Below, piece by piece: positions 4,251 to 28,194 of a stretch of DNA of 64,000 bases. The notes under the pieces are model-generated. The model was not told the origin of the DNA. It saw nothing but the letters and a program-made list of their open reading frames with translations, and did not search any database. Source of the DNA: Candidatus Gottesmanbacteria bacterium (GTDB lineage: Bacteria > Patescibacteriota > Microgenomatia > UBA10105 > UBA927); the NCBI GenBank assembly GCA_016214885.1, contig JACRMP010000005.1, forward strand, positions 134,725 through 198,724, given 5' to 3'. Every line of letters starts with the position of its first letter. The first letter of the stretch is position 1. The translations under genes were made by a program, and so were the position numbers.

Positions 4251-4664
4251 TTGTGCGGGCTCCGTTATCACAGGTACACGCTCAGCGCCGGAACTGTGAC
4301 TGATGATTCTGTAGGAGAAAGTGCATGCCGGTTTGTCACCACTGGTGATGCCGGAGCATGGAAGTCATGTTTTGAGGGGGGGGGGGCATGGAAGGCAAGC
4401 GGTTGTATAGGTCAGGGGGGAACTCCCAATGATTTCGTCAGTTGGTTTCTGAAACTTGGCACCGGTCTGGGTGGAGGTATTGCATTCCTCCTTATCCTAT
4501 TTTCCGGATTTCAGCGTATTACAAGCGCCGGAAACCCGGAAAAACTCCATGAAGCAAAAGAGCTCATGACGGCCGCAATTTCGGGGCTGCTCCTTATTAT
4601 TTTTTCGATTTTCTTGCTTCGCCTCATCGGGGTAGATATATTACAGATACCGGGTCTCCGGTAA
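4251..4664 (+). CDS. TrbC/VirB2-like T4SS mini-pilin paralog (divergent, Cys-containing N-terminus)
   Basis: The C-terminal two-helix core GGIAFLLILFSGFQRITSAGNPEKLHEAKELMTAAISGLLLIIFSIF aligns with the seven other paralogs. The gene contains a G11 homopolymer at 4376..4386. Confidence 0.55.
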   Translation: MCGLRYHRYTLSAGTVTDDSVGESACRFVTTGDAGAWKSCFEGGGAWKASGCIGQGGTPNDFVSWFLKLGTGLGGGIAFLLILFSGFQRITSAGNPEKLHEAKELMTAAISGLLLIIFSIFLLRLIGVDILQIPGLR

Positions 4665-4668
4665 ACCT

Positions 4669-5019
4669 ATGAACAAAGTGCTTGCCCAGCTTATCATCGA
4701 AGGCAACAGTGGACTTCCGGATATATCTCTCGACGAACCGGAGGGATTTACCTTTAGCGGACAGGGTATCGGCGCTATCGTCGGACAGTCGCTTACCTAC
4801 GTATTTGCTGCAGCGGGGATTGGCCTTCTCCTCATGATTATTTCAAGCGGATATTCGCTCATCATGAGTGCCGGCGACCCCAAAAAAGCGGCCGCGGGCA
4901 AAGCCACCCTTACTAATGCCATTATCGGATTTCTTCTTATATTTGCTGCATTCTGGATTGTACAGATTATGGGGACAGTTCTGGGGTGGCAGAGTATCTT
5001 TGATATTTTTGGCCAGTAA
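4669..5019 (+). CDS. TrbC/VirB2-like T4SS mini-pilin paralog
   Basis: N-terminal MNKVLAQ leader shared with other paralogs; core LIMSAGDPKKAAAGKATLTNAIIGFLLIFAAFWIVQ matches the family motif (TM1 - AGGD-KK loop - TM2). Confidence 0.65.
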   Translation: MNKVLAQLIIEGNSGLPDISLDEPEGFTFSGQGIGAIVGQSLTYVFAAAGIGLLLMIISSGYSLIMSAGDPKKAAAGKATLTNAIIGFLLIFAAFWIVQIMGTVLGWQSIFDIFGQ

Positions 5020-5021
5020 CC

Positions 5022-5702
5022 TTACTTACCGAACCTTCGTTTCCGTTTGGCGTACACTTCTATCGCCTCGTCCAGTTTCTCCGGGGTAAAATCAGGCATA
5101 TGCCACACGGGAAAATACAGCTCACTGTAAACACTCTGCCATGGTAAAAAACCTGAAAGCCGCATCTCCCCACTGGTGCGGATAATGAGGTCGGGGTCAG
5201 GGACACCGGCGGTATCCAGATGAGCGGAAAAATCCTGCTCGGTAACGCGGATAGCGTCAGGCAACGAACGCACGGCGCGGAGGATCTCGTCGCGTCCTCC
5301 GTAATTCAATGCAAAAACCGCAGTAATTTTTTTGTTTTGCGCCGTCTGCTCCATAACTCCCGTGAGCGCTTTCCGGATATCCGGCGCAAACCGGGATATG
5401 TCACCGATAACCCGCACTTTCACTCCTTTGTCGTGGAGGCGCTGCCATCGTTTACGCACCGTATGCCGGAAAATCCGCATGATACCCTCTACCTCTTTTG
5501 CATCCCTGTTCCAGTTTTCCGTAGAAAACGCCCAAAACGTAATAAACGAAACCCCCCGTTTGGCCGCATGTTCAACCAGCGGCTCCAACACTTCATCGGA
5601 AACACGCTGATGCCCTGCAAGCACCGGCAGATTATGCTCTTTTGCCCAACGGCGGTTGCCGTCCATAATTATTGCGATATGAACCGGAATATTATTTGCC
5701 AT
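5022..5702 (-). CDS. uppS: undecaprenyl diphosphate synthase (isoprenyl transferase)
   Basis: IMDGNRRWAKEHNLPVLAGHQRV and FSTENWNRDAKEVEGIM, hallmark cis-prenyltransferase motifs. Confidence 0.9.
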   Translation of the reverse strand: MANNIPVHIAIIMDGNRRWAKEHNLPVLAGHQRVSDEVLEPLVEHAAKRGVSFITFWAFSTENWNRDAKEVEGIMRIFRHTVRKRWQRLHDKGVKVRVIGDISRFAPDIRKALTGVMEQTAQNKKITAVFALNYGGRDEILRAVRSLPDAIRVTEQDFSAHLDTAGVPDPDLIIRTSGEMRLSGFLPWQSVYSELYFPVWHMPDFTPEKLDEAIEVYAKRKRRFGK

Positions 5703-5708
5703 AATGCG

Positions 5709-6689
5709 TTAAAACAAGTGGGTGCTAACGATGTGAGCACCCCGCGCCGGCTTATTATAAATAATTTCTTCAATTCCAGGGAGCTTCATCACAGATTCCG
5801 CTACCCGCGGCTCATCATTACCCACACAGATAATATGGACATTCGGCCCGGCATCTATCGTAAAGTATACCGGTATGCCCTCAGCCCGCAAACGGACTAC
5901 GTGTGCCATTATACGCTGTGTCACGGGGCTCCAGTATCTAAGCGGCGGCACCTGACTCTGCATGACTGCATGCATATCCAGGCAATCCTCTTCTGTGACG
6001 CTCCCGAACAATGCAAAATCCTTCTTTTCTAATGCTTCCCGTATAACTGCCATACGGCGGGGCACTGCATTTAACCTAGCGGCAAGCTTTGGACTGGTGG
6101 TGACCCGCTCCATACCGTCTGTAGTTGAGACTTTTTTCATGCGTTTATCCACAATAACGAGAATATCCCGGATATCCCAGTAATCAGCAGGATGCAGTGA
6201 ATATGCATAGGAGGATTGACTGTCAGTCCCCTTTTCCCATACCGCGAATCCGTCGGGAATACTCCGGCACGCGGAGCCTGATCCCAACCGCGCAAATATC
6301 GTTTGTTCCTTTTCCGAAAGCACTGTCCCCAGTGCTGCAAAACCCGCCATCGTGAGCGCAGCAAATCCGGACGCGGAGGCTGCTGATCCCGCCCCCTTGG
6401 GGAATGTGTTTTTTGTGACCACCCTGGCTCTCAACTCGCTCCCCGCTCGTTCGCGGATACGGGTAAGTCCCTTTATAACACGTGCTTTTTCATGCTCTGA
6501 AAATTCCCCGCCAATAATATCCACACTATCCTCAATGAGTGCCGGATCAAATTCTACGGTAGTAATGGTATGCGCCCCGGTAAGATTCATCGATAGCGAA
6601 TCGTTAAGAGGCAAACGGAGCGTTTCATCGGCTTTTCCCCAATACTTAATGAAGGCAATGTTGGCAGGGGCTTTTGCTGATGCTTTCAT
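5709..6689 (-). CDS. mvaD: diphosphomevalonate decarboxylase family (MDD; a phosphomevalonate-decarboxylase variant cannot be excluded)
   Basis: NIAFIKYWGKADETLRLPLNDSLSMNLT matches the GHMP-family MDD N-terminal signature. The start is trimmed to the internal Met (MKASAK), whose ATG overlaps the upstream stop as ATGA. Confidence 0.8.
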   Translation of the reverse strand: MKASAKAPANIAFIKYWGKADETLRLPLNDSLSMNLTGAHTITTVEFDPALIEDSVDIIGGEFSEHEKARVIKGLTRIRERAGSELRARVVTKNTFPKGAGSAASASGFAALTMAGFAALGTVLSEKEQTIFARLGSGSACRSIPDGFAVWEKGTDSQSSYAYSLHPADYWDIRDILVIVDKRMKKVSTTDGMERVTTSPKLAARLNAVPRRMAVIREALEKKDFALFGSVTEEDCLDMHAVMQSQVPPLRYWSPVTQRIMAHVVRLRAEGIPVYFTIDAGPNVHIICVGNDEPRVAESVMKLPGIEEIIYNKPARGAHIVSTHLF

Positions 6690-7606
6690 GGCTCCCTCCG
6701 CACTCCCGGGGCATTCGGAGTAATGTGGATAACTTGTCCACCTGCAGCTTCTATAGCCTTTTCTATTTGGCCCCGCTTCTCCTTGGGCGCTACCGCAATC
6801 ATACAATCGCCTCCTCCGGCGCCCGACAATTTTGCCCCCCAGGCTCCCGCACCTTTAGCGGCTACTATGAGTGATTCCAGCTTTTCGGAGCTTACCCCCA
6901 AATCCCTAAGATACTCCTGATTAAAGTCCATGAGTTTCCCCACCCGCTCCCAATCTCCTTCCGCCATTTTTTCCCTGGCTCCCATAACCAGGTCCGCAAT
7001 TGCGTCAAAAATACGGGTCACCCGTTCAGTTTGTGCTGCGTATTTTTTAGCGACATCCGCAACAATGGCTGCCGTGTCAGCTTTCACCCCGGTAAACCCC
7101 ACGATAAGCGGCATATGATCACTTGCTGCGGGAGTGATGGTACGGCCAAGATGCTCATACCATACCGTGCCACCCCAAATTGCTGACGCTGCATCAAATC
7201 CTGATCCTACTTTCTGAACAGCAAGAATAGCGTTACGGGAAAGCCTGAACAGCTCGCCGGGAGTCACCTTCCTGCCAATATATTCTGCAATTGCGTATAG
7301 TGTAGCAACCGTCACCGCTGCCGACGATCCTAGCCCGTAATTACCCGAAAATCCGCTCTTTGTAGCAACCAGAACGGGCGGGAGTCTGTTCCCCCAACTC
7401 CCCTGTGCCGCTTCAATCGCGGCCGCAACAAACCGGGTGTCTGATACACCCGGCGTATCAAAATGCATCGCATTGTCGTGAGACGGTGAAAGTGAAACAG
7501 TAAGCCGTTCACTCACCGCAGTTACTAAACACGGCTTACCATACACCACCGCATGATCCCCCAACAAGAGAAGTTTACCCGGCGCGGAAACGGTTATTGT
7601 GTTCAT
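6686..7606 (-). CDS. GHMP kinase, second mevalonate-kinase-like enzyme (probable phosphomevalonate kinase)
   Basis: MNTITVSAPGKLLLLGDHAVVYGKP and GSGFDAASAIWGG are GHMP kinase motifs. It sits between MVK and MDD. Confidence 0.55.
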   Translation of the reverse strand: MNTITVSAPGKLLLLGDHAVVYGKPCLVTAVSERLTVSLSPSHDNAMHFDTPGVSDTRFVAAAIEAAQGSWGNRLPPVLVATKSGFSGNYGLGSSAAVTVATLYAIAEYIGRKVTPGELFRLSRNAILAVQKVGSGFDAASAIWGGTVWYEHLGRTITPAASDHMPLIVGFTGVKADTAAIVADVAKKYAAQTERVTRIFDAIADLVMGAREKMAEGDWERVGKLMDFNQEYLRDLGVSSEKLESLIVAAKGAGAWGAKLSGAGGGDCMIAVAPKEKRGQIEKAIEAAGGQVIHITPNAPGVRREP

Positions 7607-8550
7607 ACAAGCACCTGTTCAAGCTTTACCCCCGCTCCTCCCAGCGTCACCTGAAATGATGGGTAATTATATTTTTTCGCCATACGGACAAGTGAGCCAG
7701 GGCCATCATGTACTGCCAGAATAATACCTGATCCGCCTTTTATCCCCCCCGCGCCACTTATCTTTGCGGCGCCCCCCGATTTTTCAATATTCCTAATAAG
7801 CGTTTTGGCGTCCGGTGATACAATTTCCATTTTTTCCAATAGCATTTCATTTTTTGTGAGCGCATCGCGAAAAACCTGTTCATCCTCATCGTGGATTGCA
7901 CAAGCCACCTCTTTGGTCACCGTTTCCACATCATGTAATAAATTGGTGAAATATCCCCCGTCTTTGTCTTTCACTTCTGCCACATGCCGGACTAAATCAC
8001 CGGTGCTTTCAATTCTGCCGGTATTAATAAGGACAAACGGCGCAAACGTTTTGGGTATTTTAAACGGCAGGAGCCACAGTGTTTTAAGAAATTCCAATTC
8101 TTTCCGATACCAAAGCAGGCCGCCGTGAGTCGCCACCGCAGGATCGCTTCCTGAACTGTTTTCGTGTTTTGCTTTTTCCGCCTGGTACGCACTTTCGTTA
8201 ATAGCCTGAGCATTCCATGGCAATCCCTGCCACGCAGATAGCGCTCCAATAAGGGCTACGGCAAGTGCAGCAGATGAACCCATACCACTACGAACGGGAA
8301 CCGTTGAGGCTATAGCAATGCCAATATCTGCATCAATGGTGACGTTATGTTTTTTCTCAAAAACAGAACAGATCGCGTCGAGATATGTGTCTTTTTTTCT
8401 GACTTCAGATAGACGTGGTGTTGCACCCTTTTCCAGAGTGACATACAAACGAAGCGAGGTTGCCACAATAAGTGTTGGCTTGCCGTATACAACCGCATGT
8501 TCACCGGATATATGAAGCTTGCCCGGAGCTGAAACAGTTACTTTTTTCAT
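7603..8550 (-). CDS. mvk: mevalonate kinase
   Basis: MKKVTVSAPGKLHISGEHAVVYGKP and the GHMP ATP-binding loop PVRSGMGSSAALAVA. Confidence 0.7.
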   Translation of the reverse strand: MKKVTVSAPGKLHISGEHAVVYGKPTLIVATSLRLYVTLEKGATPRLSEVRKKDTYLDAICSVFEKKHNVTIDADIGIAIASTVPVRSGMGSSAALAVALIGALSAWQGLPWNAQAINESAYQAEKAKHENSSGSDPAVATHGGLLWYRKELEFLKTLWLLPFKIPKTFAPFVLINTGRIESTGDLVRHVAEVKDKDGGYFTNLLHDVETVTKEVACAIHDEDEQVFRDALTKNEMLLEKMEIVSPDAKTLIRNIEKSGGAAKISGAGGIKGGSGIILAVHDGPGSLVRMAKKYNYPSFQVTLGGAGVKLEQVLV

Positions 8551-8849
8551 ACCAGGGGTTTTGCTTTGATTCCATAAGGGATCACCCCGTCGCCGTCAGG
8601 GTGGGTCACCCTCCGCACTACGGTAACCACCTTTTGGCCAAACACGAGATCGTTTTCATCATAATCTACCAGCTGACAAGTTATTTTTTTGCCGTCCGAC
8701 AATTCTATAAGGGCTACAGGATACGGCGCCTGATCGGTAAATCCTCCGGGAGGAACACGGACAATTGTCCACGAAAGAATAAAGCCGGTTTTACCGATTA
8801 AACCAGCCACATTTTTTTGATTTCTCCACACTTTAACCGGACTTTGCAT
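8547..8849 (-). CDS. DUF35-type OB-fold protein (thiolase/HMG-CoA synthase scaffold), lacking the Zn-ribbon
   Basis: PYPVALIELSDGKKITCQLVDYDENDLVFGQKVVTVVRR...PDGDGVIPYGIKAKP resembles the C-terminal OB fold of archaeal DUF35 proteins. It lies immediately downstream of thiolase and HMGS. Confidence 0.6.
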   Translation of the reverse strand: MQSPVKVWRNQKNVAGLIGKTGFILSWTIVRVPPGGFTDQAPYPVALIELSDGKKITCQLVDYDENDLVFGQKVVTVVRRVTHPDGDGVIPYGIKAKPLV

Positions 8850-8850
8850 A

Positions 8851-9999
8851 TTATTTTTTAAGAATATGAATAACTGACGTAGCCCCGCTTCCTCCTACAT
8901 TATGGGCAAGCCCCACAGCAGCACCCTCAACCTGCCGCTTACCCGCCACTCCGCAAAGCTGATCCACCAATTCGACAATTTGTTTAACACCGGTAGCACC
9001 AACGGGGTGGCCGCACCCCTTAAGACCTCCTGACGGATTAACGACTATTCTCCCCCCCTTACCCACCGTAGTTTGCCCGGCGGCTATAGCAGCAGCTGCT
9101 TTCCCCTTGGGGAAAAACCCCAGGTCTTCCATTGCCAGCACCTCTGCAATCGTAAAACAATCATGCACCTCGGCAACATTAATATCATTTGCGGTCATAC
9201 CCGAAAGGTTGTATGCACGCGCTGCTGCCTGTTGGGTGGCCGACAATCCGGTTAGGGTTTTCCTTTGTGCAAGACCCAGGGAATCGGTGGCAACCGCTGA
9301 AGCGGCAATTTCTACCCGGCGAGCAGCTTTTTTTTGTTTCTTGGAGGTTATAACTACTGCTGCCGCTCCATCCGATATTGGAGAGCAATCCAACAGCTTC
9401 AACGGATCTGCAATCCTGCTGCTTTTCATAACCTGCTCAACGGATAACGTATTATGAAACTGTGCATTAGGATTAAGAGATGCGTGGTAATGGTTTTTAA
9501 CAGCGACCGCTGCCAACTCCTCTTCGGTCGTACCAAACTCGCGCATGTGAATACGGGCAAGCATTGCATATAACCCCGGAAAGGTTGCTCCACCGCTCCG
9601 CTCCTCTTCGCTTCCGGCACCCATAAGTGCAGTAGCGACATCCTCCGGCTTATGATCGGTCATTTTTTCTATCCCCAGCACAACGACCGTGTCATACTGG
9701 CCGCTCATGACGCTGTTTACTGCATTGTGGAGTGCTAATCCTCCCGATGCGCATGCGCCTTCCACTTTAAATGCAGGAGCAGTGAGACCCAATTCTTCCG
9801 CAAAAAACGCCCCCAAATGCTCCTGACCGCCCAGCATACCGGAAAGCATATTGCCGACAAAAAGCGCCTGGACATCGGCTATTTCTATACCTGCATCCGC
9901 AAGTGCACCAAACACCGCCTGGCGCGCTAACCCCCGGGGAGATGCGTTCCATAGTTCGCCAAATGCAGTAGTGGCCGATCCTGTTACATATATTTTCAT
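8851..9999 (-). CDS. acetyl-CoA acetyltransferase (archaeal/SCP-x-type thiolase)
   Basis: MKIYVTGSATTAFGELW..., a thiolase fold with catalytic Cys context GACASGGLALHNA, and C-terminal HNVGGSGATSVIHIL. Confidence 0.8.
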   Translation of the reverse strand: MKIYVTGSATTAFGELWNASPRGLARQAVFGALADAGIEIADVQALFVGNMLSGMLGGQEHLGAFFAEELGLTAPAFKVEGACASGGLALHNAVNSVMSGQYDTVVVLGIEKMTDHKPEDVATALMGAGSEEERSGGATFPGLYAMLARIHMREFGTTEEELAAVAVKNHYHASLNPNAQFHNTLSVEQVMKSSRIADPLKLLDCSPISDGAAAVVITSKKQKKAARRVEIAASAVATDSLGLAQRKTLTGLSATQQAAARAYNLSGMTANDINVAEVHDCFTIAEVLAMEDLGFFPKGKAAAAIAAGQTTVGKGGRIVVNPSGGLKGCGHPVGATGVKQIVELVDQLCGVAGKRQVEGAAVGLAHNVGGSGATSVIHILKK

Positions 10000-11039
10000 A
10001 ATTTGTGGGTCATCTTAAGAAATTTAATATAGTCGATATATGTTTTTCGATGCATCTGATCAGATACCAGATCTTTTGCTTTTTTACGGGATGACTGTAG
10101 CAGAGCGAGCCCTGCAGTGGTTTCCCAGACAAAGGCATCACTTCCTGCTCCTGATCCGTACGACACCATAAATATTTTCTGGCCGGGAGACGCTTGGTCC
10201 AAAATCGCCGAAAGCCCCAGCATGGCAGTTGCGGAATAGGCATTGCCGATATGATCAACAACAAGAGACGGAGCCAGCTGAGCCGGCGAAAAACCCAACC
10301 GCTTCGCCACTTCCCGCGGAAACTTTCCGTTGGGCATGTGGAAAACACAGTAGTCGTAGTCGGCGGCTGCGGTTTTGGTCATCTCGAACAACCTGTTTGC
10401 AGCCCCCATGACGTGCTGATAATACGCAGGCTCCCCCGTAAATCTGCCGGCATGAGAAGGATACCGCATGCCGTCCCGCCGCCAAAAATCAGGTGTATCC
10501 GACGAATACGATGTATCAGCAGTCAACCGCGCCGCTACTCCTTCGCTCCCCAATAAAAATGCAGCTCCCCCGGCCGCTGCCGTATATTCCAAAAAATCGT
10601 GCGGCTTTCCCTGCGCGGTATCGCTGCCGACCGCGAGACCATACCTGGCATGCCCTGCAGCCACAAGTCCCGCAATTGCCTGAATCGCGGCGGTTCCCGC
10701 CTTGCATGCAAATTCCATATCTGCGGCAAGATACGCTGTTCCCACTCCCAATAACTCACCAACAATGGTAGATGTCGGATTCACCGCATAGGGGTGGCTT
10801 TCGCTTCCCACGAACAAGACATCAATATCGGAGGGATTATGCTGAACAGCCGCAAGGCACGAAGATGCCGCCTCGATGGCAATTGTTGCTGCGTCTTCAT
10901 CAAACCCGGGAACCGACTTATCGGTAAGACCCAGCGACCGGGACACCTCATCGGCGTCCTTCTGCCAGGCCGCTGCAATATCGGCAATACGGATACGACT
11001 TCGGGGAATATAGGTTCCGTAGGAAACAATGCCTATCAT
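9996..11039 (-). CDS. hydroxymethylglutaryl-CoA synthase (archaeal-type)
   Basis: MIGIVSYGTYIPRSRIRIADIA...DEDAATIAIEAA and the active-site region MEFACKAGTAAIQ; an HMGS/thiolase-like condensing enzyme. Confidence 0.85.
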   Translation of the reverse strand: MIGIVSYGTYIPRSRIRIADIAAAWQKDADEVSRSLGLTDKSVPGFDEDAATIAIEAASSCLAAVQHNPSDIDVLFVGSESHPYAVNPTSTIVGELLGVGTAYLAADMEFACKAGTAAIQAIAGLVAAGHARYGLAVGSDTAQGKPHDFLEYTAAAGGAAFLLGSEGVAARLTADTSYSSDTPDFWRRDGMRYPSHAGRFTGEPAYYQHVMGAANRLFEMTKTAAADYDYCVFHMPNGKFPREVAKRLGFSPAQLAPSLVVDHIGNAYSATAMLGLSAILDQASPGQKIFMVSYGSGAGSDAFVWETTAGLALLQSSRKKAKDLVSDQMHRKTYIDYIKFLKMTHKL

Positions 11040-12211
11040 AGATCCTTCCCCCTCCCCAGCGTTTCGTGTGCCCGCGACAGCGTCCCCTGCTCTAACGAAC
11101 TTAACAATGATATTTCCCCCGCAAGAACCGCGCCCCCAACGATCTCTGAGAGGCGCATCGCCTCAGCGCCGCTTCCTCCTGCACCCACCCTCAGCATGGT
11201 AAGCGCCTCCCTCTGGGTTGCAAGACCCGTCCCTCCTCCTACGGTGCCGAGCATAAGATCAGGCAAATAAATACTCATATACAAATCTTCACCGTTTTGC
11301 ACTTCTGCTGTAGTTATGCCCAGACTCCCCTCTACGACATGCGCAGGATCCTGACCCGTTGCAATAAACAGGGCGGCAATAATATTTGCATACTGGGCGT
11401 TAAATCCCATTGATCCGCTCATTACACTCCCCAACATACATTTGGATATCCAGGTTTCATACACATGCCGTGCGTTCGTTTTGAGAACATCCCGCAATAC
11501 CGACTTGGGCAGCACCACCTCAGCCGACACAACAAATCCGCGGTTATTAAGAAAATTCTGCCATGACGGTTTTTTGTCCACACAAAAATTTCCGGAAAGT
11601 GCTGTGCAATGCGCTCCCGTTTGCTCCTCAATATAGGAAGCTGCCCTGTCGGTTGCGATGGTCACCATGTTAAGACCCATTGCATCCTGCGTATCGAACG
11701 AAAACCTCACATACCGATACAGTCCCACCCCTTTTGATGTAACCGCCATAAGCGTGAGGTGGTGAGATGTTTGTTCTGTTATTTTTTTGAGTTCCTCAAA
11801 ATGGCTATCGATAAACTGCATTAGCTTCTTGTTTTCGGCGAGTGAGCTCACTTTAAACGACGGACCCCTGGTCGCTCCAGCGCGAAAACTGTCCGTTGCG
11901 GCACCCCCGCTTAATGCAATCGCCTTACATCCCCGGTTTACCGATGCCACAAGCGCACCTTCGGTGGTCGCAAGCGGCAAAAAACACGTTTCCTTGACTC
12001 CGGACGTGCGGGTGAGCGCCAATGGACCTGCCACCCCCAAAGGGATCTGAACCGCTCCAATCATATTTTCACAATTTTTGGTAGAAGCCACACCTTCGTC
12101 TAAGGTAAAACTACCTGTGTGGGAGAGACTGACTGATAACCGCTCTTCCAACGCATTCCTACGGGCTTTTGCTGTCGTAAAGGTGCGTAATGATAATGGC
12201 GTATCGTTCAT
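11036..12211 (-). CDS. HMG-CoA reductase
   Basis: Catalytic-domain motifs ENMIGAVQIPLGVAGPL, TTEGALVASVNRGCKA and DAMGLNMV, plus C-terminal MLGTVGGGTGLATQ. The start is trimmed to the internal MNDTPL. Confidence 0.85.
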   Translation of the reverse strand: MNDTPLSLRTFTTAKARRNALEERLSVSLSHTGSFTLDEGVASTKNCENMIGAVQIPLGVAGPLALTRTSGVKETCFLPLATTEGALVASVNRGCKAIALSGGAATDSFRAGATRGPSFKVSSLAENKKLMQFIDSHFEELKKITEQTSHHLTLMAVTSKGVGLYRYVRFSFDTQDAMGLNMVTIATDRAASYIEEQTGAHCTALSGNFCVDKKPSWQNFLNNRGFVVSAEVVLPKSVLRDVLKTNARHVYETWISKCMLGSVMSGSMGFNAQYANIIAALFIATGQDPAHVVEGSLGITTAEVQNGEDLYMSIYLPDLMLGTVGGGTGLATQREALTMLRVGAGGSGAEAMRLSEIVGGAVLAGEISLLSSLEQGTLSRAHETLGRGKDL

Positions 12212-12221
12212 AAGTAATAAT

Positions 12222-12986
12222 TTATAAAAACGGAACTTTAAATATACCCAAGCGGTACATAGCATACGCCCACGCCGTCATGCCGGGGGCGGAACAAACC
12301 CCCACCACCACCGCCTGCAGAAGAGTAACTTTTAACCCAAACCGCAGGGTAAGATACGACAGCGTCACTTTCCACCATAATAGGGTAACGCTAAAAACCA
12401 GGAACAATAAACTGAACAGCACTCCGGGCACACTCGTTGTCCGTGGCGGCGGCAGAAGTACGTATAACACCGATGTAGCTAAAAACCATGTTACTGTCGG
12501 CACCAGGGTGTACGCCCATGCCAACAAAATCGGCCATAACTCTGCGCGTTTTCCAAACAACCTGCCCACCGCCGCAATACTCAGTGCCGCACAAAACACC
12601 CCGCTTACAGCGCCCATGGCGAGGGCGATAAACTGCTGCGTTAAAAGAAACGGACGGAATGATGCTATTTTTACAATACTTGCCAACGCAAAATATAAAG
12701 ACAACAATAAGCCGATATAAACAAATTCGCCCGATCTGCCGTGCGTCACAATACGCCGGTACGTTTCGTATGGACGTGAGATCAGCCCCACCAGTGTACG
12801 GCCGAAGGTAACCCCATCAACAATAAGTGCGCTCATGACGTCCATATTTAGGTAGTCGGAAAAATGAGGAAAAACCCGCGCTGGAGCGTTTAATTCCCTT
12901 ATGGAGCACCAACTAGAACCCGCGCTGGAGAAGCGTGACAATTGCCGAAACGGCCGGTCCGAATATGATATATAACCCTGCTGCAA
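12222..12986 (-). CDS. polytopic membrane protein of unknown function
   Basis: Five to six hydrophobic helices. The likely true start is the internal MDVMSALIVDG at about 12845. Same strand as the sigma factor and the mevalonate genes. Confidence 0.4.
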   Translation of the reverse strand: MQQGYISYSDRPFRQLSRFSSAGSSWCSIRELNAPARVFPHFSDYLNMDVMSALIVDGVTFGRTLVGLISRPYETYRRIVTHGRSGEFVYIGLLLSLYFALASIVKIASFRPFLLTQQFIALAMGAVSGVFCAALSIAAVGRLFGKRAELWPILLAWAYTLVPTVTWFLATSVLYVLLPPPRTTSVPGVLFSLLFLVFSVTLLWWKVTLSYLTLRFGLKVTLLQAVVVGVCSAPGMTAWAYAMYRLGIFKVPFL

Positions 12987-13143
12987 CCAGAAGACTCACC
13001 CCTACAAACCACGGCAGCGGTGTCACCTTAAGCCGCTTCGTCATCTGCTTATATAGTTGCGTTAAAGGACCCAAGGTTTGCGGTGGAATATCTGTCACCT
13101 CTTCCCACCGTTTTACAAATTTTTGATATGTAGCGTCAGGCAT
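12913..13143 (-). CDS. small single-pass membrane protein, candidate anti-sigma factor
   Basis: 76 aa with a cytoplasmic N-terminal part and one TM (LPWFVGVSLLVAAGLYIIFGPAV). It lies immediately downstream of the ECF sigma gene, 3 nt after its stop. Confidence 0.3.
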   Translation of the reverse strand: MPDATYQKFVKRWEEVTDIPPQTLGPLTQLYKQMTKRLKVTPLPWFVGVSLLVAAGLYIIFGPAVSAIVTLLQRGF

Positions 13144-13145
13144 AG

Positions 13146-13706
13146 TTATAATGACAAAAACACTTCGACAAACGCACGCCTTGCTCTAAACAGCCGTGAT
13201 TCTGCGCTCTTAAAGCTGATTGAAAGCTCTCGGGCAATATCTTCAACACTCACGTGCTCCAGATATTTAAGCACCAGCACCCTCCGGTGTACGGGAATGA
13301 GGCGCCGCATAGCGGCCTGAATTTTTTCTTTCACCAACGAAACATCAAGCTCTTCTTCCGGCCCCAACATGGGAGAAACCAGAAATTCAAGCTGCGGCAT
13401 TTGCGAAAACACAATGTGTTTTAATTTCTTTTTTCGGTAATAGTCGATGATCTTGTGCTGACAGATAGAGAACAGGTATGTTCGCACCGAACTTTTTTGC
13501 TGAAAATCCCGCAGACCCTCCAAAAATGAAAAGAGCGTGTCCTGAAGTATTTCCTCTGCATCCTCTGCTGTTTTAACCTTGGTGATGATATACCGGCGGA
13601 GCTGGGGCGCATAGGTACGGTAAAAAATACCTGCTGCCTGCCGGTCATGAGCAAATAGCCTGGTAATCAGCTGTGCGTCATCCATGGGATGCCCCCACTT
13701 TACCAT
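13146..13706 (-). CDS. ECF-family RNA polymerase sigma-70 factor
   Basis: Region 2 LQDTLFSFLEGLRDFQQKSSVRTYLFSICQHKIIDYYRKKK and region 4 LKYLEHVSVEDIARELSISFKSAESRLFRARR. Confidence 0.75.
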   Translation of the reverse strand: MVKWGHPMDDAQLITRLFAHDRQAAGIFYRTYAPQLRRYIITKVKTAEDAEEILQDTLFSFLEGLRDFQQKSSVRTYLFSICQHKIIDYYRKKKLKHIVFSQMPQLEFLVSPMLGPEEELDVSLVKEKIQAAMRRLIPVHRRVLVLKYLEHVSVEDIARELSISFKSAESRLFRARRAFVEVFLSL

Positions 13707-13708
13707 AA

Positions 13709-14056
13709 TTGACGCATCCGCTCAATTTTAGGTACACTGAAAGTATGTTTGAACAGGTGCTGGCCCAATCCGAAGATTTACAGGCGCTCGCCCCCAATCC
13801 CGGGCTTACATCGTTTGGCATGCTTATTACCGCAATTGTAAAGAATTCATTCGTTTTAGCAGGTATTATCAGCTTTATTTTGTTGATTTTCGGCGGATTT
13901 AACGTTATAGTAGCCGCAGGAGACGCCAAAAAGGCTCAACAGGGCAAAGCGGCAATTACAGGAGCCGTCACCGGACTGCTTCTGGTGCTTGGTTCTTTTT
14001 GGCTTGTCCAGATTATAGAAGTAATAACGGGTCTCAAGCTATTGAGTCCGCAATAA
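13709..14056 (+). CDS. TrbC/VirB2-like T4SS mini-pilin paralog
   Basis: Core FVLAGIISFILLIFGGFNVIVAAGDAKKAQQGKAAITGAVTGLLLVLGSFWLVQ. The likely true start is the internal MFEQVLAQ at 13745, which matches the xxLAQ leader of the other paralogs. Confidence 0.65.
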   Translation: MTHPLNFRYTESMFEQVLAQSEDLQALAPNPGLTSFGMLITAIVKNSFVLAGIISFILLIFGGFNVIVAAGDAKKAQQGKAAITGAVTGLLLVLGSFWLVQIIEVITGLKLLSPQ

Positions 14057-14065
14057 CACGAAATT

Positions 14066-14425
14066 ATGAAGCTGCTCGCACAGGCCGGAGAAATAGTCGG
14101 TTCAATAGAAAGCCCGCTTTCCAGCACCGGATACGGGAGCATATCATCGGGGGCTGTTGGATTGTTTATCACCAACGTTATCCGCTTGGCATTTGTCGCC
14201 GCCGGTATTTACGCCCTGTTTAACTTCATAATCGCCGGGTATTCATACATGAATGCTGCAGGTGACAGTAAAAAATTATCAGAAGCGTGGAGCCGTATCT
14301 GGCAATCCCTCATGGGTCTGGTTATTATTGTCGGATCATTTGCCCTCGCGTCATTGTTTGGCTACCTTATTTTCGGAAACGCCGGGTATATATTAAATCC
14401 GACTATCTACGGGCCCGGAGAATAA
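14066..14425 (+). CDS. TrbC/VirB2-like T4SS mini-pilin paralog
   Basis: MKLLAQ leader; core FVAAGIYALFNFIIAGYSYMNAAGDSKKLSEAWSRIWQSLMGLVIIVGSF. Confidence 0.65.
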   Translation: MKLLAQAGEIVGSIESPLSSTGYGSISSGAVGLFITNVIRLAFVAAGIYALFNFIIAGYSYMNAAGDSKKLSEAWSRIWQSLMGLVIIVGSFALASLFGYLIFGNAGYILNPTIYGPGE

Positions 14426-14426
14426 T

Positions 14427-14792
14427 ATGCGTGAACTTGCATTAGAATTAGGTCAAATCGGCGGCGAAGGCCTGGGGCCATTCGGATCAAACCCGGGCGA
14501 CGGGCTGACCGGCATCACCAGCATAGTTTCTTCTGTCATCGGCATCATGACAATAGCAGCAGGCATATGGTTCCTGTTCCAATTCATTATCGGAGGATTT
14601 AATTGGATCAACGCCGGAGGCGATAAAGCAAAGCTCCAGACATCCAAAGACAGACTTACCAATGCGTTTGTCGGGCTTATTGTCGTCGTTGCCGGGTGGG
14701 CAATCTTAGCCCTTGCAGGCACATTCTTTAATGTTGATTTCACCATATCAAATCCGGGCTCCCTGTTGCAGCAGCTGAGTCCGAACCGATAA
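14427..14792 (+). CDS. TrbC/VirB2-like T4SS mini-pilin paralog
   Basis: Core IAAGIWFLFQFIIGGFNWINAGGDKAKLQTSKDRLTNAFVGLIVVVAGWAILA. Confidence 0.65.
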   Translation: MRELALELGQIGGEGLGPFGSNPGDGLTGITSIVSSVIGIMTIAAGIWFLFQFIIGGFNWINAGGDKAKLQTSKDRLTNAFVGLIVVVAGWAILALAGTFFNVDFTISNPGSLLQQLSPNR

Positions 14793-14796
14793 CACT

Positions 14797-15138
14797 ATGA
14801 ACACTCTCGCCCAAATAGTAAATCCAGTACTCCCCGGCGCTCTGGGAAGCGGCGGCAACAGCACCGGGCCATCAGCGCTGGGCTCAATTATCAGCTCGCT
14901 TGTGGGTGTTTTTCTTATTCTTGCCTTCATTTCCGCCCTGCTTTACATGTTTCTTGGCGGATTTGACTGGATCACGAGCGGAGGCGACAAAACGAAACTT
15001 CAATCATCCCGGGACAAGATCACCAACTCCCTGGTAGGTCTTGTTGTTGTCGGAGCATCGTGGGCGGTTATGATGATTGTCGGCAACTTTATGGGCATTG
15101 ATTTCCCTAACCTACCTATTCCTGTTATCGGCAATTAA
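14797..15138 (+). CDS. TrbC/VirB2-like T4SS mini-pilin paralog
   Basis: MNTLAQ leader; core LYMFLGGFDWITSGGDKTKLQSSRDKITNSLVGLVVVGASWAVMM. Confidence 0.65.
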   Translation: MNTLAQIVNPVLPGALGSGGNSTGPSALGSIISSLVGVFLILAFISALLYMFLGGFDWITSGGDKTKLQSSRDKITNSLVGLVVVGASWAVMMIVGNFMGIDFPNLPIPVIGN

Positions 15139-15198
15139 CCAAGAGTGATAGGCTAAACCAAGAAAAAATAAACCTGTTTATTGACAAACCGAGTTTTG

Positions 15199-15228
15199 TT
15201 GCGCAAAAATGGAAGGTAGTGGTATAAT
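15199..15228 (+). promoter_or_regulatory. candidate sigma-70-type promoter upstream of pilin paralog 15263
   Basis: TTGCGC (15199..15204), an 18-nt spacer, then TATAAT (15223..15228), and AAAGGA 8 nt before the ATG at 15263. It lies in the only sizeable gap inside the pilin array. Confidence 0.35.
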
Positions 15229-15262
15229 AAAGCTTGTATTGATTTGACGAAAGGATTCATTT

Positions 15263-15592
15263 ATGCAAAAAGTATTTGCCCAAGCAGCACTGGATGTTAA
15301 ACAGCCGGACACTATCAAAATCACCGACATCGGCAAACTGATCAGTGCCCTCGTCGGAACCGTTCTTATCATCGCAGCGCTTTTGGCATTTCTTTACCTC
15401 ATCCTGGGAGGCATTAAGTGGATCACCTCCGGCGGCGACAAGGCCGGTATGGAAGAGGCGCGTAACAAAATTACCCACGCCATCGTCGGACTCATCATTG
15501 TCGGCTCTGCCTGGGCAGTGATGACGCTCGTCCAAAACTTCTTGGGCGTGCAGATCATCGGTGGTTCCATAAACTTCCCGAAGCCATACTAA
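15263..15592 (+). CDS. TrbC/VirB2-like T4SS mini-pilin paralog
   Basis: MQKVFAQ leader; core LYLILGGIKWITSGGDKAGMEEARNKITHAIVGLIIVGSAWAVMT. Confidence 0.65.
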   Translation: MQKVFAQAALDVKQPDTIKITDIGKLISALVGTVLIIAALLAFLYLILGGIKWITSGGDKAGMEEARNKITHAIVGLIIVGSAWAVMTLVQNFLGVQIIGGSINFPKPY

Positions 15593-15651
15593 CCGTTCAC
15601 AAAACGATTTTGGGCTTTACTCTGTAAGACTCCTGGGGGATAATATTATAT

Positions 15652-15948
15652 ATGGAAAGCTGCTCGATAGACGGCGTTGTACAAATCACCTGTATCATCC
15701 CGCTCGTTGCCAATGTAATCCGCGCTGTAGTGGCATTAGGCGCAGTAGCTCTGTTTGTCATGCTTCTTGCAGGAGGATTTAATTTCCTGTTTTCTTCCGG
15801 CGATCAAAAAAAACTTGAAGCTGCACGGGGCACCGTAACCCAGGCAATTGTTGGTATTATTATCATGTCTGTAGCATTCCTTATCTTACGCACCATACAA
15901 TTATTTACGGGAGTTGACGTGTCTACACTGCAGTTTCCTACACCGTAG
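15652..15948 (+). CDS. TrbC/VirB2-like T4SS mini-pilin paralog (shortest)
   Basis: Core VMLLAGGFNFLFSSGDQKKLEAARGTVTQAIVGIIIMSVAFLILR. Confidence 0.6.
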   Translation: MESCSIDGVVQITCIIPLVANVIRAVVALGAVALFVMLLAGGFNFLFSSGDQKKLEAARGTVTQAIVGIIIMSVAFLILRTIQLFTGVDVSTLQFPTP

Positions 15949-16000: not shown

Positions 16001-17626
16001 ATGAAGCGATTATTTTTAACCATCACCGGACTCATTCTGGCACTTGCTGTTTCAGTAAACCCGCTCCGTGTATACGCACAGGGTGCTGATGCCGCCGCAA
16101 CAACAGCTCCCGCAGCTGGTGAATGCGATTCCTGGTTTGTGGCTCCGGTCACTTGTCTTTTGGAACCGATAACCAAAGGTGTTGCGGGATCCCTCAATAA
16201 ACAAATCGGCGACATCGGCACAGCAACATTTGCCATGGGGCAAATGGTTATTGCCGGCATGGGACTATGCGATTCTGAATGCAATCCGAATTGTCCCAAG
16301 GGAGTGAGTTTCCAGCACAGTGCAGTTGCCGGTCTTTCGACGACGGCGCTTGCGATGTACCAAAATCCTCCCGCAGAAACCAAAACCTATATTGCCGATG
16401 TCGGAAGAACCCTAGGATTCATGCCGAGAGTGCAGGCACAGGGAATCGGATTCTCCGGTCTTTCTGCACTTCTTGACCTGTGGAAAGCATTTAGAAATAT
16501 TGCCTATGCCCTGCTCGCCATCATCCTTATTGTCGTAGGCTTTATGGTCATGTTCCGGAAGAAAATTGACCCCAAGACTGTAGTGACGGTACAAAACGCA
16601 ATCCCACGCATCGTTATCGCCCTTCTTCTGGTTACCTTCTCTTATGCCATAGTAGGTGTCATGATTGATCTGATGTATCTGGCGATCGTGCTTATTGTTT
16701 CTATCGTTGCCGGAGCAGCGGGACCTTCTCTGGGACAATCAGTGAGCCTGTTTACAACAGGTGGCTCATGTGTAGGCGCCGGCAGCGGAGCGGCGGTAGA
16801 AATCGGCGGGGGCACCGCAACCACCCAGCAAGTTTCCACAATACTGTTTAACGGCGGCGTCGGCGGACTTATGCAGTTTTTTATGGGAAGCGGATTTCAG
16901 GCGTGGGACGATATTGCCTCCATGCTTACCGGAGGATTTGACGCAAAAACTACCGCAGCATACTTTATTGTCCCCGGTCTAATCGGCGCACTCGTCGGCG
17001 GCGGAAAAGGATTGTTTACCGGTCTTGTATCAGCGCCCATACTATTAACACTTATTATCCTTATCGTCTTAATCTTCGGGTTTATCCGACTTGTATTCAT
17101 GCTTATTGATGCGTATATCAATATCATCATTTCGTTACTCACTGCCCCATTCCACCTTATGATGGAGGCAATTCCGGGAACCAATGCGTTTTCCAACTGG
17201 TTTAAGAACCTATTATCCAAAATAATAGTATTCCCGATAACTGCGGTGTTACTTCTGGTTGCGGCGGTCTTGACCAGCCAGAATGTCGCTACCAAGATAT
17301 GGGCACCACCCATGCTTTCGAGCGGCGGCGGCGCGTTTGGCATGGCTGGTATTATCGGACTCGGCATGCTGCTTGTTATCCCGACCGTAGTTGCGGGCAT
17401 CCAAAAAGGACTTAAGGCAGAACCTCTGGTGCCGGGCGGAGTGGCGCCTATATTCGGTCCATTGGGAAGCGGCGTCGGACAACTCTTCTCGTTGGTATAT
17501 CAGGCGTCATTTGTCTCGAGTGCGCTACGGCACAAACCAGACGACAGAAGCGGTATGCAATTAGCACGCGAAGGCTCAACAAAGGGCTTGGGTGCCATCA
17601 CCGGTGGCGGCAGCGGCGGCCATTAA
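16001..17626 (+). CDS. VirB6/TrbL-like polytopic T4SS membrane protein with signal peptide
   Basis: Signal peptide MKRLFLTITGLILALAVSVNPLRVYA, a periplasmic Cys-containing N-domain, then at least six TM helices rich in Gly/Ala, and a Gly-rich tail ...GGGSGGH. It directly follows the pilin array. Confidence 0.55.
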   Translation: MKRLFLTITGLILALAVSVNPLRVYAQGADAAATTAPAAGECDSWFVAPVTCLLEPITKGVAGSLNKQIGDIGTATFAMGQMVIAGMGLCDSECNPNCPKGVSFQHSAVAGLSTTALAMYQNPPAETKTYIADVGRTLGFMPRVQAQGIGFSGLSALLDLWKAFRNIAYALLAIILIVVGFMVMFRKKIDPKTVVTVQNAIPRIVIALLLVTFSYAIVGVMIDLMYLAIVLIVSIVAGAAGPSLGQSVSLFTTGGSCVGAGSGAAVEIGGGTATTQQVSTILFNGGVGGLMQFFMGSGFQAWDDIASMLTGGFDAKTTAAYFIVPGLIGALVGGGKGLFTGLVSAPILLTLIILIVLIFGFIRLVFMLIDAYINIIISLLTAPFHLMMEAIPGTNAFSNWFKNLLSKIIVFPITAVLLLVAAVLTSQNVATKIWAPPMLSSGGGAFGMAGIIGLGMLLVIPTVVAGIQKGLKAEPLVPGGVAPIFGPLGSGVGQLFSLVYQASFVSSALRHKPDDRSGMQLAREGSTKGLGAITGGGSGGH

Positions 17627-17709
17627 TCTCCCCTAATAGATTGATGTTTTTCTCCCGGGAAATAATTCGTGCACGCGGGCTACTCACGGTAACGCAGCGT
17701 CACAAAAAC

Positions 17710-20700: not shown

Positions 20701-21327
20701 TTTAAGATCGGATGCTAGCGGTGTGTCTTTAAGATCCACGTCGGCTGCTTCGTCATATAAACTCTTCACTGCTCCCGTAAGCTCAGGGTCATTATCTCTA
20801 ACAGGTTCCCCGGCTTCACCATCTTCCCCCACTCCGGAGCCGCCCTGAATAACCGGCACCGCTTCGTATGCAATGCCTTCCAGTGTCGGGTGCTCCGCAA
20901 TAATTTTGCGCAAATATTTCCTCGCCTCAACGGCGGTGGGGCTTGTATATTCTGCTTCTTTGGCCACCCGTGCTAACCGCTCGGCAACCCCCCGCATATA
21001 CTCAGGATCGGCCAACTGGGATTCGTCTGCGGTAAGAAGCGACTCAACAATACTAAACACTCTGGCGTCTTTAGGTAAATCGGATTCATTCCCCACAATC
21101 CTTTTGGTTGTTTCTGATGTCGTCTCCTTGAGCTTGCCCACCAGCGCTGCCAGACGATCTACAGACACGGTGTGCTCACCTGTTTCGGGCACTTCAGGAG
21201 GTGCTTCCGCGGGAGGAGGCGTCGGCTCAACGGGGGCAGCCTGCTCCACTGGCTTAGCGGGCTGACCTGCTTCTGCAGCTTTTTTGGCCGCCTCATTTAA
21301 CCGCTTAAATAGTTCTTCGTTAGCCAT
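17710..21327 (-). CDS. large (1205 aa) tail-anchored protein of unknown function, T4SS-associated by position
   Basis: A single uninterrupted ORF. The N-terminus is Pro/Ala/Glu-rich (PVEQAAPVEPTPPPAEAPPEVPETGEH); the body is mostly predicted-helical and soluble; a His-rich segment THEWHDAKHHEHDKQ is present; one C-terminal TM (YWWVPILATLAIAA) is followed by SAGGGGH at the C-terminus. Confidence 0.55.
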   Translation of the reverse strand: MANEELFKRLNEAAKKAAEAGQPAKPVEQAAPVEPTPPPAEAPPEVPETGEHTVSVDRLAALVGKLKETTSETTKRIVGNESDLPKDARVFSIVESLLTADESQLADPEYMRGVAERLARVAKEAEYTSPTAVEARKYLRKIIAEHPTLEGIAYEAVPVIQGGSGVGEDGEAGEPVRDNDPELTGAVKSLYDEAADVDLKDTPLASDLKELQFRFRVDPGAAYDGRLTDDAVRRMVEKGRKEGVSEKLVQQAVERVRQFERFTDLRMQKHQEKLRGGRVVTWGEVMGNSPNPELHKPDEVFPDFRYIPPSDVEMLIQGDEGEARWYFDFIDQIYSMGREETRPTLTQDQRFQEFKDFLVWKYGSEYHLAVQLYQKHWDSRGQYEYAVKGLMYNPGDVKDRLKAMSLLQGADLDHLYKNFDHSNEAYSLYEHVLFELMATKRAKYGEAVKYMREEVNWNGGKMKREDILKELKAKQRQEGYDPEKGKTQSPLSVEDQRLMHEIQQQQDLAAEGVMLWDDDVQSYTELHITLSKLRNAREDLLKKKSEGVALNEKEMEQLSEVERLYQIYSHREEMLNENFTQELLETRGLSPVDIEVRKRLVEYLQAQHPEDPNYKPAEYEVRMALWASRTAMIGSGRMAMIGAMMSVPPANEYGTASGKHVMRAPAFEDIQRIFNPETFATRFNIGGDMGITARSIFRKNLLTTKGINPKEVGWFRKYLGGMAESIGQKMKLTKTHEWHDAKHHEHDKQRQKAMETWEFAEDATGISFSELLGPGFMSSGGFYDGTAWRLEKGISDELRGKMLSMKKLPENAALLDNQALSIQLLTAGNAAERKPILDRMLRRNPSKFLELLEEDTEKILTKNNVTHEEWKKFKEALSLAELKMAHEKDWQFARIDLADKKDFDALVAPYLKLLKFDPARNENMRQVIVDMQAEIYRSRTVEASGATFRNKMDAISALKLPLTMSLTDFDWKESNFYQLGTVAMHRRIRDVGAQMRARDGMLEFFSNSEMVLSPNDYTKSLQKMMEVRTAIVDYSGPDAAEATVKEMMRVFFEMNKGRHLSMQLVPGLTGLLQHFEPDFRGLEKNKLLQTIFGKERWEHLAKEKIAHWPHSIAEAVSYSTRYTGSHGNVWDEIKMSEIIHTAHDMGLFINHPEYLQDLQKEFHTTLIDRLWAMGRKYWWVPILATLAIAAEKSVEEQKSAGGGGH

Positions 21328-21410
21328 AGAGCGTAAACGACACGAAATAACGCGCTAAATACATGCGCCTCTTAATATTCTATCGTTTCGATCCGCTACA
21401 AACAAGGGAG

Positions 21411-21965: not shown

Positions 21966-21971
21966 AGCCTC

Positions 21972-24155: not shown

Positions 24156-24188
24156 GAAGTAATCTTATCATACGTATTTTTCCCGCGT

Positions 24189-24218
24189 TCGTGAAAACTA
24201 AAAAAGTGGAGTTTTCAC
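24189..24218. promoter_or_regulatory. perfect 10-bp inverted repeat, candidate operator in the divergent T4CP / T4SS-operon promoter region
   Basis: CGTGAAAACT - aaaaaagtgg - AGTTTTCACG, located between the start of the minus-strand gene at 24155 and the plus-strand gene at 24278. Confidence 0.35.
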
Positions 24219-24277
24219 GGTCCTGATGCGCTTTGTGCTATTGAACCCCAATCATTTTACCTCTACAATATTTTTAC

Positions 24278-25600: not shown

Positions 25601-25603
25601 CCT

Positions 25604-28190: not shown

Positions 28191-28194
28191 CCCT

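Follow-up and report, generated by a model that had tools for sequence, protein, structure and literature searches.

A mevalonate operon with a ribbon-less DUF35 protein

We analysed a 64,000-nucleotide stretch of the genome of a Candidatus Gottesmanbacteria bacterium (GenBank assembly GCA_016214885.1, contig JACRMP010000005.1, positions 134,725 to 198,724; hereafter “the window”), focusing on three adjacent genes of a mevalonate operon that encode a thiolase, a 3-hydroxy-3-methylglutaryl-coenzyme A (HMG-CoA) synthase (HMGS) and a DUF35 protein of only 100 amino acids (aa) that lacks a zinc ribbon. The host belongs to a class of the Candidate Phyla Radiation (CPR), and an identical 100-aa protein has been recorded from Candidatus Gottesmanbacteria. 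A first-pass annotation of the sequence had described positions 8547-12211 as an archaeal-style trio of these genes in a bacterial mevalonate operon; its coordinates and description are correct, with the feature lying on the minus strand.

Between 5022 and 12265, eight co-directional minus-strand genes form one tightly coupled mevalonate operon (Table 1), which runs from HMG-CoA reductase (HMGR) through HMGS, thiolase, DUF35, two GHMP kinases (A and B) and diphosphomevalonate decarboxylase (MDD) to the cis-prenyltransferase UppS. Start and stop codons overlap in an ATGA at five of the junctions, including HMGR-HMGS, HMGS-thiolase and kinase B-MDD, and the thiolase stop and DUF35 start are one base apart (TAA-T-ATG), from which we conclude that the operon is translationally coupled. 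Two gene starts merit comment. The HMGR open reading frame (ORF) contains a second ATG at 12211 (MNDTPLSL...), the end coordinate given in the first-pass annotation; this start, which yields a protein of 391 aa, is the more plausible one because it keeps HMGR clear of the Yip1-like ORF that lies upstream and ends at 12222. The true start of MDD is likely the ATG at 6689, which overlaps the kinase B stop through an ATGA junction. HMGS begins with MIGIVSYGTYIPRSR, as previously annotated. A promoter and terminator scan returned counts close to shuffle expectation.

The best PDB matches of kinase B are the Methanosarcina mevalonate kinase structures 6mde and 4hac (138 bits), and those of kinase A are likewise mevalonate kinases, with 75 bits at most. 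Kinase A probably performs the phosphomevalonate kinase (PMVK) step of the CPR pathway as laid out by Hoshino and Gaucher in 2018 (PMC6107057).

Thiolase and HMGS are of archaeal type and retain their catalytic residues

Each protein of the trio was searched against all PDB sequences. All three best solved relatives are chains of the Methanothermococcus thermolithotrophicus complex 6ESQ/6ET9: 6esq_A for the thiolase (301 bits, E 1e-88, 44.7% identity), 6esq_I for HMGS (367 bits, E 8e-109, 51.5% identity) and chain E of 6ESQ for DUF35 (50 bits, E 2e-12). Chance cannot account for matches of this strength. Curated archaeal models score above their cutoffs for both enzymes (Table 1), whereas bacterial counterparts fall far below: HMGS does not match the bacterial-type model (TIGR01835, 122.5 bits vs a cutoff of 360) and reaches at most 82 bits against bacterial mvaS structures, and the thiolase does not match the thiolase-II model (TIGR01930, 92.7 bits vs a cutoff of 240.55). 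By sequence comparison, the earlier assignment of the thiolase to the SCP-x/archaeal type and of HMGS to the archaeal type is confirmed over the bacterial atoB/mvaS type.

Mutagenesis of the M. thermolithotrophicus complex in a 2026 study found the histidine of the thiolase HDxF motif, His284, to be essential along with E82/C114/H238/N270 of HMGS (PMC12960953). The HMGS tetrad aligns with E80/C112/H234/N266 of the window protein, and the window thiolase carries C83-A-S85 (CxS), H279-D-C-F282 (HDxF) and G330-H331 (GHx), identical to the archaeal motifs. We compared these residues across related loci, found in a locus scan that took one genome per GTDB species and returned 80 loci (the query alignment was biased towards Gottesmanbacteria, and the breadth of the short DUF35 form is under-sampled). 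The tetrad is kept in 73-74 loci, with a single N-to-D exception, and the CxS, HDxF and GHx motifs in 76-80.

Since the essential residues are intact, we regard the pair as a bona fide acetoacetyl-CoA thiolase and HMG-CoA synthase. The competing reading, a non-mevalonate acyltransferase or thiolytic complex repurposed in the manner of PhlABC, MucABC or the Pseudomonas fluorescens ACAT/HMGS-DUF35 system, draws on a report of more than 1,000, mostly uncharacterised, loci in bacteria where HMGS, ACAT and DUF35 genes are co-localised (PMC12960953), and on the fact that PhlA, at 205 bits, is the second-best solved relative of the window HMGS. The repurposed complexes, however, lack the E-C-H-N tetrad of HMGS, and PhlC and MucB also lack HDxF (PMC12960953), whereas the window proteins have both; the trio is moreover embedded between HMGR and the lower mevalonate pathway. 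We therefore consider repurposing very improbable.

The DUF35 protein has lost its zinc ribbon

Solved DUF35 proteins consist of an N-terminal helix, a rubredoxin-like Cys4 zinc ribbon and an oligonucleotide/oligosaccharide-binding (OB) fold, and all of them bind zinc (PMC6996347; PMC12329534); the sole reported deviation from Cys4 is a Cys3His site (PMC12329534). The 100-aa protein matches the OB domain PF01796 only, with no match to the zinc-ribbon domain PF12172, and its single Cys is residue 58. It is nevertheless a genuine DUF35 protein, as first annotated. HMMER aligns residues 19-99 with residues 50-128 of 6esq_E and, weakly, residues 5-20 with residues 3-18 of that chain, and in an alignment with long forms a 32-column gap coincides exactly with the Cys4 ribbon, so the loss of the ribbon that had been suspected from the sequence is borne out. 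On either side of this gap the OB fold can be aligned, as can the N-terminal helix (SPVKVWRNQK..LIG vs ..WR...RY.L.G), whose W8 and R9 do not vary in long or short forms.

The predicted structure agrees. In the AlphaFold2 model (predicted local distance difference test score, pLDDT, 89.3), a helix at residues 4-15 is joined directly to a five-stranded OB barrel. In the PDB, each of the 17 best Foldseek matches of this model is a DUF35 subunit from a thiolase complex; chains E, F and G of 6esq lead, and PhlB and MucC are among the top matches. The alignments to MucC span 136-140 columns, which means that helix and OB fold both superpose across the gap at the ribbon position. Because the ATG of DUF35 sits one base past the thiolase stop, the gene cannot be extended upstream. 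We also considered relocation of the ribbon elsewhere in the operon, or its fusion to a neighbouring protein, and rejected both: over their full length, thiolase and HMGS can be aligned to the archaeal chains, and a search of all coding frames of the operon for a CxxC...CxxC motif found none. We conclude that the 100-aa protein is an orthologue of the archaeal DUF35 clamp from which about 32 residues, the Cys4 zinc ribbon, have been excised, while the N-terminal helix has been kept, as has the OB fold, including its long and conserved beta1-beta2 loop.

The short form is a conserved family within a range of ribbon states

The short form is widespread. A single-sequence search with the 100-aa protein matched at least 415 clusters at 90% identity, and a profile of diverse short forms matched at least 875 such clusters at E <= 1e-5. 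Among the best 120 single-sequence matches nearly all are 98-107 aa long and match PF01796 only, with four of 113-117 aa that begin at an upstream start; the 120 profile matches listed are all about 100 aa. Among the profile matches we found no organism names beyond Gottesmanbacteria and Patescibacteria, the distant clusters being mostly without names.

Within the closer short-form family, 21 columns are invariant among 120 sequences. Conservation is highest in the helix (S3, P4, V5, K6, W8, R9 and Q11) and in the beta1-beta2 loop (R31, P33, P34, F37 and Q40-P44). Median pairwise dN/dS is 0.09, at a dS close to saturation, and the short DUF35 is under strong purifying selection.

Long and intermediate forms occur among the relatives. 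We took a census of ribbon states in a library clustered at 50% identity. Of its 150 best representatives, 128 are near full length: 93 of these are short, 5 carry a partial insert, 8 a full-length insert without Cys, and 22 an insert with three or four Cys. Individual loci illustrate the range, from Cys4 long forms (L082 and L086) through Cys-less long forms (L081, L083 and L088), a partly deleted ribbon (L085) and a split gene (L089) to a distant short form (L084). Every form checked sits directly after HMGS and thiolase, and where contigs are long enough the genomes bear bacterial features such as penicillin-binding proteins, FemAB-like enzymes, SecG, L28 and LepA. Such a mixture of states in a single operon context implies that the ribbon degenerates repeatedly or progressively. 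On a neighbour-joining tree built from 100 columns of 126 DUF35 sequences, parsimony counted 17 changes between long and short forms; we rejected this count as unreliable, since so short an alignment is insufficient and the “short” entries include fragments and split genes such as that of L089. In the latter (L089:6830-7315) DUF35 is spread over two ORFs, one of 53 aa comprising the N-terminal helix (KYWRNNKLRYRLLG) and a Cys-free tail and one of 104 aa comprising the OB fold, explained either by a frameshift in a long-read assembly or by a real split in a degenerating gene.

Degenerate ribbons among relatives, whether Cys-less, partly deleted or split between two ORFs, might suggest that the 100-aa ORF is itself a functionless DUF35 remnant in decay, or an artefact of a truncated annotation. 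Against this stand the near-constant length of 99-100 aa over hundreds of clusters, the invariant columns, the low dN/dS, the confident fold prediction and the coupled start without room upstream, and we judge such an explanation extremely improbable.

Two further DUF35 architectures were seen. In a Thermococcus orthologue named AcaC (P0183/P0275, 134 aa), a C-x4-H...C-x2-C pattern (CENGHVHFPKRPICPVCG) replaces the first CxxC, which suggests from the sequence a Cys3His zinc site in a DUF35 of archaeal mevalonate type, comparable to the site that has been described as unique to bacterial Shy. Among the distant matches, P0263 (470 aa) is a natural HMGS-DUF35 fusion with a ribbon at about residue 354 and an OB fold spanning 391-468, similar to the P. 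fluorescens HMGS-DUF35 fusion of PMC12960953.

Distribution and origin of the operon

The 80 loci stem from Gottesmanbacteria, Woesebacteria, Microgenomates and unclassified Patescibacteria metagenome-assembled genomes (MAGs). A ten-gene order (sigma factor, Yip1-like, HMGR, HMGS, thiolase, DUF35, kinase A, kinase B, MDD, UppS) is identical in 53 of them and, so far as contigs extend, is shared by almost all; in nearly all of the rest the departures come from contig ends or split tblastn hits, and a few loci lack tblastn matches for the kinases or MDD. In L084, whose DUF35 is 38% identical to that of the window, the upper part of the operon is the same. Its lower pathway (L084:5610-8402) comprises one GHMP kinase, an MDD-like decarboxylase and a protein of the amino-acid-kinase fold, the last of which is likely an isopentenyl phosphate kinase and hence part of an alternative mevalonate route; this agrees with the mixed mevalonate pathway types reported in CPR (PMC6107057).

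Many of the loci retrieved (L004-L006, L008, L010 and around 40 more) come from MAGs titled “uncultured Gammaproteobacteria bacterium” (SRP, ERP and binchicken co-assemblies). They carry the Gottesmanbacteria-type operon with a DUF35 50-80% identical, and the titles look like placeholder or wrong taxonomy.

An archaeal-type trio is thus present in this bacterium, as had been noticed, although it is not peculiar to this genome: it is the published CPR/Microgenomates cluster (PMC6107057). Hoshino and Gaucher reported archaeal-type acetoacetyl-CoA thiolase (AACT) and HMGS from CPR bacteria, notably most Microgenomates, and argued for descent from a common ancestor with archaea (PMC6107057), whereas a study from 2024 makes the case that mevalonate genes originated in archaea and were then transferred to bacteria, CPR included (PMC11052028). 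The choice between horizontal acquisition and an ancient shared module, raised in the first-pass annotation, is therefore a standing debate in the literature. The archaeal theme of the trio has already been published for CPR, and the operon itself adds nothing new to it.

A recent transfer from an archaeon into this particular bacterium is a separate proposition. It can appeal to the exclusively archaeal character of the best-matching curated models and solved structures, and to the 2024 case for transfer into CPR (PMC11052028), but the shared gene order and a GC content of 0.50-0.52 in the operon, matching that of the flanks, give no sign of recent acquisition; even the distant L084 has a similar arrangement. 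The proteins are also only 45-52% identical to archaeal ones, and in published trees the CPR sequences form a clade of their own, congruent with the CPR species tree (PMC6107057). We hold a recent transfer to be highly unlikely; an ancient one into the CPR ancestor, as distinct from it, may have occurred.

A proposed minimal metal-free scaffold

We think it probable that the window holds a Microgenomates-type CPR mevalonate operon in which the ribbon-less DUF35 acts as a minimal, metal-free scaffold. The SCP-x-type thiolase would condense two acetyl-CoA to acetoacetyl-CoA, an unfavourable reaction, and the archaeal-type HMGS would at once pull this product forward to HMG-CoA, with the short DUF35 as the scaffold that binds the thiolase through its helix and OB fold. 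Class-I HMGR, mevalonate kinase, the second GHMP kinase (as the presumed PMVK) and MDD would then yield isopentenyl diphosphate (IPP), from which UppS would make the undecaprenyl (C55) carrier lipid for cell-wall and surface-polysaccharide synthesis.

We favour a zinc-free scaffold because the parts used in other DUF35 complexes are the most conserved parts of the short form. The N-terminal helix together with the OB fold is the primary interface to the thiolase-fold partner in those complexes (PMC12329534), and in PhlABC a long loop of the PhlB OB fold seals the cavity between both enzymes' active sites (PMC6392133). By this analogy we are highly confident that the short DUF35 would still bind the thiolase, and put the odds that it would also hold HMGS at about even. 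The fullest version of the idea, that the short form is a natural minimal DUF35 which still clamps thiolase to HMGS without metal, so that the ribbon is dispensable for scaffolding, seems to us evenly balanced between right and wrong. Were it right, the range of ribbon states would record stepwise loss during genome streamlining, the minimal interaction module would be the N-terminal helix plus the OB fold with its beta1-beta2 loop, and a smaller, zinc-independent scaffold for engineering mevalonate flux would be at hand.

A narrower role is conceivable, in which the short DUF35 partners the thiolase only, stabilising or solubilising it, while HMGS is untethered and no fused CoA site is formed. 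Functional two-component thiolase/DUF35 complexes exist, for example KT/DUF35, BbsAB and Ltp2-ChsH2 (bioRxiv 10.1101/2024.07.05.601840; PMC12329534), what has been kept of the protein is precisely the interface described for the thiolase, and its gene adjoins the thiolase rather than HMGS. Yet long-form operons have the same HMGS-thiolase-DUF35 order with the same translational coupling, the conserved beta1-beta2 loop matches the PhlB loop that closes a cavity common to both enzymes (PMC6392133), and HMGS and thiolase are still 45-52% identical to their archaeal partners. We regard a thiolase-only role as a possible but rather doubtful alternative.

Several points weigh against the metal-free scaffold as we have set it out. 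A physical complex, and channelling within the window trio, would follow by homology with solved complexes. If the ribbon makes most of the contacts of DUF35 with HMGS or with CoA in 6ESQ, binding by the short form may be limited to the thiolase. In Sal/Shy, the thiolase-fold partner has a substrate cleft that is shaped by the zinc finger (PMC12329534), so ribbon loss could alter the active-site environment. The assignment of kinase A to the PMVK step is taken from the literature, with no model scoring above its cutoff. Finally, neither isopentenyl-diphosphate isomerase (IDI) nor a trans-prenyltransferase was found among the scanned window ORFs (seven ORFs of at least 150 aa at 55.9-61.8 kb were left unscanned), and the pathway is to this extent incomplete within the window.

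Under the scaffold reading, an entire bacterial radiation uses the complex in primary metabolism in a version cleanly stripped of its ribbon. This poses the question of which part of DUF35 joins thiolase and HMGS, and what the ribbon is for, and offers a compact candidate scaffold with which to engineer the first mevalonate step, a thermodynamically difficult one. We expect the deletion to be of modest interest to structural enzymologists and pathway engineers, and no surprise to most specialists.

Genomic neighbourhood

Upstream of the operon lie genes for a Yip1-domain membrane protein, a small single-transmembrane (TM) protein and a sigma factor (Table 1). In all related loci with contigs of sufficient reach, sigma factor and Yip1 genes come before HMGR, as they do in L084 (151-1554); this co-occurrence in the sequences hints at a regulatory or functional link between the sigma, single-TM and Yip1 genes and the mevalonate operon.

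Two arrays of small pilin ORFs flank the operon, and the first-pass annotation was right that the adjacent trio is accompanied by HMGR and GHMP kinases and that the bacterium has type IV secretion system (T4SS) pilin arrays, as the PF18895 matches attest. Together with the genes that follow, the regions 4251-5019, 13709-15948 and 16001-30375 are a Patescibacteria-type type IV secretion locus. Further along, GC skew turns from negative to positive around 32000, at dnaN/dnaA; this region is probably the chromosomal replication origin, about 20 kb from the mevalonate operon. Beyond it lies a surface-polysaccharide cluster whose enzymes likely consume the undecaprenyl carrier made by the operon. 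The carrier-lipid role proposed for UppS fits both a neighbouring SpoIID-like gene and this large cluster at 34-61 kb.

Table 1. Features of the mevalonate operon and its surroundings (window coordinates; bit scores with model cutoffs where given).
Feature	Position	Strand	Evidence or remark
UppS, cis-prenyltransferase (undecaprenyl-diphosphate synthase)	5022-5702	minus	PF01255 245 bits; TIGR00055 221.5 vs cutoff 109
Diphosphomevalonate decarboxylase (MDD)	5709-6806	minus	TIGR01240 261 vs cutoff 171; PF22700 and PF18376
GHMP kinase B, mevalonate kinase, 306 aa	6686-7606	minus	TIGR00549 182.5 vs cutoff 163
GHMP kinase A, mevalonate-kinase-like, 315 aa	7603-8550	minus	TIGR00549 163.4 bits, at cutoff
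DUF35, short form, 100 aa	8547-8849	minus	PF01796 (OB_ChsH2_C) 53.7 bits vs cutoff 27.1
Thiolase, SCP-x/archaeal type (acetoacetyl-CoA), 382 aa	8851-9999	minus	NF004720 463 bits vs cutoff 420
HMGS, archaeal type, 347 aa	9996-11039	minus	NF003274 478; TIGR00748 433.5 vs cutoff 353
HMGR, class I (NADPH-type)	11036-12265	minus	PF00368 373.7 bits; TIGR00533 (class I) 397 vs TIGR00532 (class II) 38.6
Yip1-domain membrane protein	12222-12986	minus	Pfam match
Single-TM ORF, 76 aa (76-77 aa in relatives)	12913-13143	minus	anti-sigma-like?
Extracytoplasmic-function (ECF)-like sigma-70 factor	13146-13706	minus	Pfam match
Eight small T4SS-pilin ORFs in two arrays flanking the operon	4251-5019 and 13709-15948		PF18895
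Polytopic 541-aa protein	16001-17626		no Pfam match
1205-aa protein	17710-21327		no Pfam match
VirD4/TrwB-like coupling ATPase	21972-24155		
PrgI-domain protein	24278-25600		
TraG/VirB4-like P-loop ATPase	26226-28190		
M23 peptidase	28195-30375		
dnaN	31341-32453		
dnaA	32636-34072		
Surface-polysaccharide cluster	34125-55892		two Wzy/O-antigen-ligase-like proteins, several GT1/GT2/GT4 glycosyltransferases, carbamoyltransferase, flippase; sugar-modifying enzymes (FdtA-like, DegT aminotransferase); one radical-SAM/SPASM protein; GDSL-like proteins

Comparison with known systems

In the Methanothermococcus complex, described by Voegeli et al. in PNAS in 2018, DUF35 reportedly clamps thiolase and HMGS together and the two enzymes have one common CoA-binding site; the tripartite complex is reported from some bacteria as well. 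The window trio is like 6ESQ in that its three genes are adjacent, the HMGS tetrad and thiolase motifs are identical, and the DUF35 helix and OB fold are kept. It differs in its DUF35, since the archaeal protein of about 130 aa has a rubredoxin-like Cys4 ribbon (residues ~19-49) that is absent from the window protein, in its bacterial host, and in an operon that runs on into HMGR and a lower pathway of bacterial/eukaryotic type.

The operon as a whole shares with the CPR cluster of PMC6107057 the archaeal AACT and HMGS, HMGR-I, mevalonate kinase (MVK), the second GHMP kinase (PMVK), diphosphomevalonate decarboxylase (DPMD) and synteny with a cis-prenyltransferase. It differs from that set in that IDI-I is no part of the window operon, with none found among the scanned ORFs. 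DUF35 is not mentioned in Hoshino and Gaucher 2018 (PMC6107057; 0 occurrences), nor in the 15 top-ranked of 480 matches of a full-text literature search that combined DUF35 with CPR names, and we have not found the family-wide loss of the DUF35 ribbon described in the searchable literature.

Other DUF35 complexes are related more distantly. In BbsAB, Ltp2-ChsH2(DUF35), Sal-Shy(DUF35) and the Sulfolobus KT/DUF35 complex, all of them structural matches, DUF35 docks on an SCP-x-type thiolase fold; unlike the window trio, these two-component systems contain a Cys4 or Cys3His zinc site, belong to other pathways and lack an HMGS partner. PhlABC of Pseudomonas protegens and MucABC of Streptococcus, by comparison, are homologous heteromers of HMGS-like, thiolase-like and DUF35 subunits that are alike in overall architecture and act as Friedel-Crafts acyltransferases. 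These repurposed complexes, like that of P. fluorescens, have lost the HMGS tetrad and/or the thiolase HDxF motif (PMC12960953). PhlABC and MucABC have thus given up catalytic residues and kept the Cys4 ribbon, whereas the window trio has done the reverse, retaining the catalytic residues of both enzymes and giving up the ribbon.

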